Source: Escherichia coli
GTDB lineage: Bacteria > Pseudomonadota > Gammaproteobacteria > Enterobacterales > Enterobacteriaceae
NCBI RefSeq assembly: GCF_003790525.1
Contig: NZ_CP033635.1
Direction: 5' to 3' (one strand)
DNA: 64,000 nucleotides
The notes beneath the pieces are model-generated. The model did no database searches and was not told where the DNA came from. It saw nothing but the letters and a program-made list of their open reading frames with translations. Both the position numbers and the translations under genes were made by a program. The number at the start of each line of letters is the position of its first letter. Position 1 is the stretch's first letter. Positions 52,461-53,320 of this stretch are shown in pieces.

Positions 52461-52681
52461 CCCGCCACCTTTTTCTAACCTTTTGCCGCTATGATGCCAA
52501 TCGTTTCTTGAGGTTATTATTCAGTTTTGCAAATTAGCGCAAAGAAATTCTGGAATCTTCCTTCCTGATTTTGCATTGCATTCTGCCGTTGCGGCGATTT
52601 AGTGCTATTTTCGAGCAAATTACACACGGAGGTAAACACTAATGTTTACTTTGTTGATATACTCAGCGGCAGGGAGGCGAT

Positions 52682-52858
52682 GTGAAACAAAGCGAGTTCA
52701 GACGTTGGCTCGAATCTCAGGGCGTCGATGTAGCGAATGGCAGCAACCATTTAAAACTGAGGTTTCATGGGAGGCGCAGTGTCATGCCGCGTCACCCCTG
52801 CGATGAGATTAAAGAACCATTGCGTAAAGCAATCCTGAAACAACTCGGTTTGAGTTAA
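52682..52858 (+). CDS. hicA: type II toxin HicA (mRNA interferase)
   Basis: GTG-initiated 58-codon ORF MKQSEFRRWLESQGVDVANGSNHLKLRFHGRRSVMPRHPCDEIKEPLRKAILKQLGLS, immediately upstream of hicB; below the track threshold. Confidence 0.8.
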   Translation: MKQSEFRRWLESQGVDVANGSNHLKLRFHGRRSVMPRHPCDEIKEPLRKAILKQLGLS

Positions 52859-52882
52859 TCGCCAATTAAAAAGGTTAATGAC

Positions 52883-53320
52883 ATGCGAGAGACAGTCGAA
52901 ATTATGCGTTATCCCGTCACTCTTACACCCGCGCCGGAAGGCGGTTATATGGTTTCTTTTGTGGATATCCCTGAAGCGTTGACCCAGGGCGAAACAGTTG
53001 CTGAAGCGATGGAAGCGGCAAAAGATGCTTTACTGACCGCATTTGATTTTTATTTTGAAGATAACGAGCTTATCCCGTTACCTTCGCCATTAAACAGTCA
53101 CGATCACTTTATTGAAGTGCCTTTGAGCGTCGCCTCTAAAGTATTGCTGTTAAATGCTTTTTTACAGTCAGAAATCACTCAGCAAGAGTTAGCCAGGCGA
53201 ATTGGCAAACCTAAACAGGAGATTACTCGCCTATTTAATTTGCACCATGCGACAAAAATCGACGCCGTCCAGCTCGCGGCTAAGGCGCTTGGCAAAGAGT
53301 TATCACTGGTGATGGTTTGA
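52883..53320 (+). CDS. hicB: type II antitoxin HicB (with C-terminal DNA-binding domain)
   Basis: 145-aa track ORF (true start may be the internal MRYPVTLTPAPEGGYMV Met); 24 nt after hicA. Confidence 0.85.
   Translation: MRETVEIMRYPVTLTPAPEGGYMVSFVDIPEALTQGETVAEAMEAAKDALLTAFDFYFEDNELIPLPSPLNSHDHFIEVPLSVASKVLLLNAFLQSEITQQELARRIGKPKQEITRLFNLHHATKIDAVQLAAKALGKELSLVMV

Follow-up and report, generated by a model that had tools for sequence, protein, structure and literature searches.

In the 64,000-nucleotide stretch of Escherichia coli DNA analysed here (the window; NCBI RefSeq assembly GCF_003790525.1, contig NZ_CP033635.1, one strand, 5' to 3'), a short palindrome precedes the hicAB toxin-antitoxin genes. 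An earlier note proposed that it is the site at which the antitoxin HicB regulates its own operon, which raises the question of whether this is the operator hicO or one of the many inverted repeats found in intergenic DNA. The reading favored here, with a probability of roughly 0.88 as a whole, is that the locus is the chromosomal hicAB operon, that the palindrome is hicO, that HicB represses an antitoxin-only promoter (P2) there, and that a CRP- and Sxy-dependent promoter (P1) lies upstream. The main features concerned are the following.

52632..52649, no strand assigned: inverted repeat GTAAACA-ctaa-TGTTTAC, putative HicB operator hicO (sequence, conservation, and the literature description of hicO).
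52655..52663, plus strand: predicted extended -10 of P2, TGaTATACT, with the hexamer TATACT at 52658-52663 (from sequence).
52670..52671, plus strand: predicted P2 transcription start, at the usual 6-7 nt downstream of the -10.
52672..52677, plus strand: Shine-Dalgarno GGGAGG of hicA (sequence; GGGAGG or AGGAGG in orthologues).
52682..52858, plus strand: hicA, mRNA interferase toxin, GTG start, 58 codons (open reading frame list, RefSeq, Pfam).
52904..53320, plus strand: hicB, antitoxin and repressor, 138 aa (RefSeq, Pfam, PDB 6HPB chain B).
35627-35776, minus strand: hokB.
60785-60958: ortT.

The identity of the locus is evidenced by both its surroundings and its proteins. The window shows 1 mismatch to E. 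coli SMS-3-5 across 44 kb, and the 1.3 kb around hicAB are 100% identical to SMS-3-5 and a dozen further strains. RefSeq annotates the neighbors in the order rlhA (ydcP), yncJ (minus strand), hicA, hicB, and ydcR, and the yncJ-hicA-hicB-ydcR synteny of the matching genome is that of K-12. From 52500 to the hicA start the sequence matches K-12 MG1655 base for base (K-12 coordinate = window + 1,456,604), so K-12 experiments on this promoter region are directly applicable to the window locus; beyond it, a few synonymous or flanking substitutions separate the SMS-3-5-like strain from K-12. In this strain background an IS4 element at about 47252-48580 interrupts ydcO, which encodes a BenE-family transporter, and leaves it as two pseudogene halves.

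The two genes lie on the same strand, hicA first and hicB second, with a 45-nt spacer between them. The open reading frame list and RefSeq, for both the matching genome and K-12, confirm the earlier description of hicA as a GTG-initiated gene of 58 codons preceding hicB, and hicB ends at 53320 as had been reported. HicA matches Pfam PF07927 (HicA_toxin) over residues 5-57 of 58 with 30.9 bits (cut-off 27) and differs from K-12 HicA by at most one residue (98.3% identity over 58 aa, with the GTG start translated as V). Its translation, MKQSEFRRWLESQGVDVANGSNH..., contains His23, the sole known catalytic residue of E. coli HicA. Cleavage of mRNA independent of translation is established for K-12 HicA, and by identity the HicA of the window probably acts likewise.

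HicB matches PF15919 (HicB_lk_antitox) at its N terminus (residues 3-67, 33.0 bits, cut-off 27) and PF01381 (HTH_3) at its C terminus (residues 88-134, 31.6 bits, cut-off 23). It also matches the 138-aa chain B of PDB 6HPB over its full length (E = 8.8e-87), and 6HPC as well. By these matches it belongs to the helix-turn-helix (HTH) class of HicB proteins ("Class 3" of Gerdes 2024), with an N-terminal partial RNase H fold domain and a C-terminal HTH. A search of NCBIfam gave no match for HicA or HicB, both of which Pfam matches. The mechanical open reading frame list offers an alternative in-frame upstream ATG for hicB at 52883, giving 145 aa; RefSeq and the crystallized protein place the start at 52904, giving 138 aa. 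With both proteins above the Pfam cut-offs and HicB matching 6HPB, the assignment to a type II module holds. The clustering of three toxin loci (hokB, hicA, and ortT) within 25 kb is essentially right as well, the measured span being 25.3 kb.

The palindrome is present exactly as first read, with perfect 7+7 arms, GTAAACA at 52632-52638 and TGTTTAC at 52643-52649, around the 4-nt spacer ctaa. It does lie upstream of hicA, although 32 nt from the GTG instead of the approximately 35 nt originally given, and occupies positions -50 to -33 relative to the hicA start. It is the sole short-range inverted repeat in the 221-nt yncJ-hicA spacer. A dimeric HTH (XRE-type) repressor needs half-site centers about 11 bp apart, and the half-site centers of this palindrome are 11 bp apart.

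What is published on the K-12 operon describes a site of this kind. Later papers attribute to Turnbull and Gerdes (2017, Mol Microbiol 104:781) an upstream hicAB promoter, P1, with a CRP-S site and activation by Sxy, and a promoter P2 that is repressed by HicB alone, is derepressed by excess HicA, and yields transcripts producing HicB but not HicA. Later papers on K-12 hicAB describe hicO as an inverted repeat in P2 that is bound by HicB dimers. Secondary sources report physical HicB binding and its release by excess HicA for K-12, reviews call HicB binding to a 147-bp promoter fragment weak, a point that counts against the favored reading, and HicB reportedly does not repress P1. The structure of Manav et al. 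(2019, PDB 6HPB/6HPC) is described as a HicB dimer formed through the HTH. From the identity of the promoter region to K-12 and the presence of a lone inverted repeat there, we infer that the palindrome at 52632-52649 is hicO, which is how the comparison with mapped sites suggested in the earlier note comes out. A full-text literature search with the operator sequence gave no match, and one with the name "hicO" returned unrelated uses of the word only.

Evidence for a conserved site comes from hicAB loci retrieved by protein rather than by motif. A HicB protein search with one genome per bacterial species yielded 18 loci, and the 14 with a recognizable hicA directly upstream were used; they come from seven genera (Escherichia, Citrobacter, Raoultella, Superficieibacter, Pantoea, Serratia, and Brenneria) and encode HicB proteins 60-100% identical. 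GTAAnCA-N4-(T/C)GnTTAC is present in 13 of these 14, the exception being Brenneria roseae, in which the upstream region is rearranged. The motif starts 49-51 nt before the GTG in 12 of the 13 and at -39 in the remaining one, which carries an 11-bp deletion. The site holds 1.68 bits of information per column, compared with 0.50 across the 45 nt on the left and 0.98 in the right flank, which includes the -10 and the ribosome-binding site; upstream of the site, no alignment between genera is possible. Within the site, arm position 5 and position 14, which pairs with it, vary without compensation, and the four central bases are free. A putative HicB recognition-helix segment, (K/R)Q(E/N)(I/V)xR(L/I), is kept in all the HicB proteins encoded at loci with the site.

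More distant relatives mark the limits of the motif. Two sites, GTAATCAaaaaTGATTAC at -51 and GTAATCAaaaaaGATTAC at -85, are present on an Aeromonas salmonicida plasmid that encodes a HicB with only 50% identity, and an Arsenophonus plasmid has a distal-type site only. No such motif was found on a Variovorax plasmid encoding a HicB with 52% identity over residues 15-135 (an 88% match). Not all HTH-type HicB proteins, therefore, come with the motif. Within these limits, conservation in 13 of 14 protein-anchored loci and on the Aeromonas plasmid answers the earlier query about other hicAB loci in favor of the palindrome, and together with the K-12-identical promoter region it supports the proposal of a HicB operator.

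Two variants of the locus deserve separate mention. In Citrobacter and Raoultella (loci L008-L011), E. coli-type hicAB with about 130 bp of homologous upstream DNA lies in another chromosomal context, not beside yncJ, which indicates that hicAB and its promoter region move as one module. In E. coli SCPM-O-B-8794, a separate GTDB species (L005:2230-2283), the 11-bp deletion (TTGTTGATATA) leaves the palindrome in place, now at -39 from the GTG, and takes most of the predicted P2 -10 (its TATA) and the TG extension.

Promoter P2 can be placed relative to the operator. The predicted -10 hexamer begins 8 nt past the palindrome, and the extended -10 ends 18 nt before the GTG. There is no recognizable -35 at P2; the operator covers the -35 and spacer region. 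A two-hexamer promoter scan misses P2 because P2 has no -35, and the single hit that it gives, at 52878-52905, is no better than chance. The predicted P2 start precedes the GTG by 11-12 nt and the ribosome-binding site GGGAGG by 1-2 nt, a plausible reason for the P2 transcript's hicA cistron being untranslated. From this arrangement we infer the P2 -10, its start site, and a geometry in which bound HicB would occlude the promoter.

The proposed circuit would work as follows. HicA (58 aa) would act as a ribosome-independent mRNA-cleaving toxin, which the N-terminal domain of HicB would neutralize, while the C-terminal HTH domain would dimerize HicB. One HicB dimer would set two recognition helices in successive major grooves, one per half-site, on an operator at about -38 to -21 of P2, just upstream of the extended -10, and RNA polymerase would be occluded at P2. 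When HicA exceeds HicB, the HicB-DNA complex would be destabilized and P2 would fire; its transcript would give HicB and little or no HicA, restoring antitoxin excess. Both hicA and hicB would be transcribed from upstream P1, in dependence on CRP and Sxy.

The position of P1 is more tentative, and two features are put forward with low confidence.

52603..52611, plus strand: tentative P1 -10, TGcTATTTT (low confidence; lies in the conserved G(C/A)TAT block).
52551..52566, no strand assigned: tentative CRP-S-like dyad TGGAA-tcttcc-TTCCT, candidate Sxy/CRP site (low confidence).

Scanning the spacer with three consensus forms, the best matches to the CRP-S motif TGCGA-N6-TTCCA reach 7 of 10 specified bases, with three sites tied. 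One joint-best match, TGGAAtcttccTTCCT at 52551-52566, coincides with a TGGAA-N6-TTCC dyad. This dyad and G(C/A)TAT (52604-52608) are the only two upstream blocks common to Escherichia, Citrobacter, and Raoultella, and together they would fit, tentatively, a P1 start near 52618-52620 with a class-I-like CRP site located some 60 bp upstream. Were this tentative placement correct, the P1 transcript would contain the operator at about +13 to +30; as P1 reportedly escapes repression by HicB, a roadblock by bound HicB would have to be ineffective, which weighs against the favored reading.

A further complementarity lies in the same leader. CTTTGTT (52649-52655), right after the operator, is complementary to AACAAAG (52686-52692, hicA codons 2-4), and the pair brackets the ribosome-binding site and start codon. 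The Raoultella counterpart is ACTTTGC/GCAAAGT, with both sides changed at one position. The pairing may be coincidental, or it may form a translational hairpin that only the longer P1 transcript would contain.

A wider sample reveals two promoter layouts around the conserved operator. Searching metagenome contigs for a pattern made up of the motif and, after it, a hicA start yielded 120 loci; being chosen by the motif itself, they inform promoter architecture and not conservation. Pooled with the protein-anchored loci, they give 77 unique upstream sequences. In 34 of these 77 a near-consensus promoter is wrapped around the operator, with TTGACx, a spacer of 16-18 bp (17 bp in 32 of the 34), and a -10 built from the right arm (TACTAT, TACAAT, TACACT, or TACCAT, the first three bases being the end of that arm). 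Pantoea, Serratia, Brenneria, and Superficieibacter have a second operator, GTAAACA-N4-TGTTGAC, centered 21 bp upstream of the center of the first, and its right arm doubles as the -35. The Escherichia/Citrobacter/Raoultella type accounts for 27 of the 77; here TTT follows the arm, a -35 is absent, and TATACT or TATAAT begins 8 nt past the palindrome in all 27. Both layouts occur together in none of the 77 loci.

The palindrome-to-GTG distance is 32 nt in both layouts, so in the E. coli layout the -10 seems to have been relocated 11 bp by substitution rather than by an insertion. The comparison suggests that the antitoxin-only P2 may be a derived feature. A more specific proposal is that E. 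coli P2 is a derived rewiring of an older operator-wrapped sigma-70 design, in which an 11-bp shift of the -10 occurred and the CRP/Sxy promoter took over toxin expression; its chances seem a little short of even. The older wrapped promoter, on this proposal the form kept by most lineages with the operator, would give a translatable hicA-hicB message. The Escherichia/Citrobacter/Raoultella lineage would have lost the -35 and gained a new -10 11 bp downstream, such that the transcript starts at the ribosome-binding site and yields HicB only. If true, an 11-bp shift of one hexamer turned simple autoregulation into a toxin-sensing, antitoxin-replenishing circuit.

The Pantoea/Serratia/Brenneria-type loci (L007, L012-L015, and many metagenome loci) share another element, a strongly conserved leader block, CATGTTCAACAG, about 10-22 nt past the palindrome. 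It sits where the wrapped promoter would begin transcription, and in most such loci it opens a mini-ORF of 7-8 codons whose end overlaps the hicA GTG.

Three other explanations of the palindrome have to be weighed, beginning with chance. Functionless inverted repeats do arise in AT-rich intergenic DNA, and the real HicB site could then be elsewhere. Perfect repeats with arms of 7 nt or more and spacers of 0-10 nt number 91 in the window, versus about 50 in sequences simulated by a first-order Markov model. When 221-nt spacers of the same first-order Markov composition are simulated, about 13% hold at least one (P about 0.13). The palindrome by itself is thus within chance expectation, and its significance rests only on conservation. 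A chance repeat is not expected to recur with one and the same motif and an equal spacing to hicA in 13 of 14 independently retrieved loci that have unalignable flanks, nor does the vicinity of P2 offer another short-range inverted repeat. The consensus GTAAnCA-N4-TGnTTAC, moreover, occurs once in the 64-kb window versus 0.12 times expected. Chance origin appears effectively refuted by conservation and retains almost no probability.

The palindrome could also function in RNA, as a 5'-leader stem-loop through which the stability or translation of the P1 transcript is affected, or serve as a DNA site for a protein other than HicB. It would be transcribed from P1 if the tentative P1 is right, and the E. 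coli RNA can form a 10-pair hairpin of -8.4 kcal/mol (z = -3.4), but this stability is not conserved: orthologues range from -6.7 to -1.9 kcal/mol, with z weakening to -0.5. Substitutions at arm positions 5 and 14 produce G/A and T/T mismatches, the Citrobacter right arm begins with a C opposite A, and no Rfam family matches. In the 34 wrapped loci, furthermore, the -35 and -10 hexamers lie beside or across the palindrome, placing it upstream of the predicted start, where it is not transcribed. An RNA role is accordingly highly improbable. Another regulator, either CRP-Sxy acting on P1 or a global factor, with HicB binding neighboring sequence, might be entertained because hicAB is known to have a CRP-S site that is not located with confidence in the window. 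The palindrome, however, has neither CRP half-sites nor their 6-bp spacing, and no CRP-type match overlaps it. The motif also travels with hicAB into unrelated contexts and onto plasmids, as expected of the site of a cognate repressor, and the putative HicB recognition helix is conserved alongside it, making a foreign regulator very unlikely. The reading of the palindrome as the HicB operator hicO remains the preferred one.

A survey of complete genomes shows that hicA is frequently inactivated within E. coli. About 1,160 of 5,426 complete E. coli genomes (e.g., ABU 83972 and APEC IMT5155) lack the operator/P2 40-mer and keep the upstream spacer. In ABU 83972, the one examined (L145), a 445-bp deletion of window positions 52637-53081 runs from inside the left arm (after GGTAAA) into hicB, taking half the operator, P2, the whole of hicA, and about 59 hicB codons. 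A second deletion, of 22 bp (window 52799-52820) between two TGCG repeats, frameshifts hicA and leaves hicB and the operator intact, as in E. coli GN4554 (L146). Its junction is found in 811 of the 5,426 complete genomes, O104:H4 included, and Escherichia sp. E1V33 and several gut-metagenome contigs contain the same 44-aa truncated hicA ORF. One or other of these two hicA-inactivating deletions is present in about 37% of complete E. coli genomes, so that hicA can be intact in at most about 63%. A literature search on this hicA population polymorphism found nothing. That hicA is already inactivated in roughly a third of sequenced E. coli bears on claims about its physiological role.

The hicAB system, its two promoters, and the inverted-repeat operator were already published in 2017-2019, and the palindrome is in this respect a correct re-discovery; the two promoter layouts and the frequency of hicA deletions are new but incremental. 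For annotation, the value lies in the correct placement of a 58-codon GTG toxin gene and an 18-bp operator. The consensus GTAAnCA-N4-TGnTTAC can be used to spot HicB-regulated promoters in Enterobacterales and Aeromonas, and the two mutually exclusive layouts suggest how an antitoxin-only promoter may have arisen.

Among known systems, E. coli K-12 hicAB (P1 with CRP-S/Sxy, P2 with hicO) is the same locus, with nothing of substance different. Yersinia pestis hicA3-hicB3 (Bibi-Triki et al. 2014) likewise has the toxin gene first and HicB on inverted repeats in the hicA promoter. Its main operator overlaps the -10, and its two-operator layout (BS1 and BS2) resembles that of the Pantoea/Serratia/Brenneria-type loci. 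On the other hand, HicB3 has a ribbon-helix-helix domain and 15-bp repeats, and its description includes only one promoter and no antitoxin-only transcript. In Burkholderia pseudomallei hicAB (Winter et al. 2018), HicB likewise binds a palindrome, there overlapping the predicted -10, and excess HicA frees HicB from DNA, whereas that HicB is a ribbon-helix-helix protein forming a tetramer with a large rearrangement and has another operator sequence. A parallel with unrelated proteins is E. coli mqsRA, in which the toxin gene again comes first, a folded antitoxin with an XRE-type HTH binds a palindromic operator, the toxin destabilizes the antitoxin-DNA complex, and extra promoters provide antitoxin-only transcripts. 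In mqsRA, however, the palindrome is a different one, and the antitoxin-only promoters are constitutive and lie inside the toxin gene.
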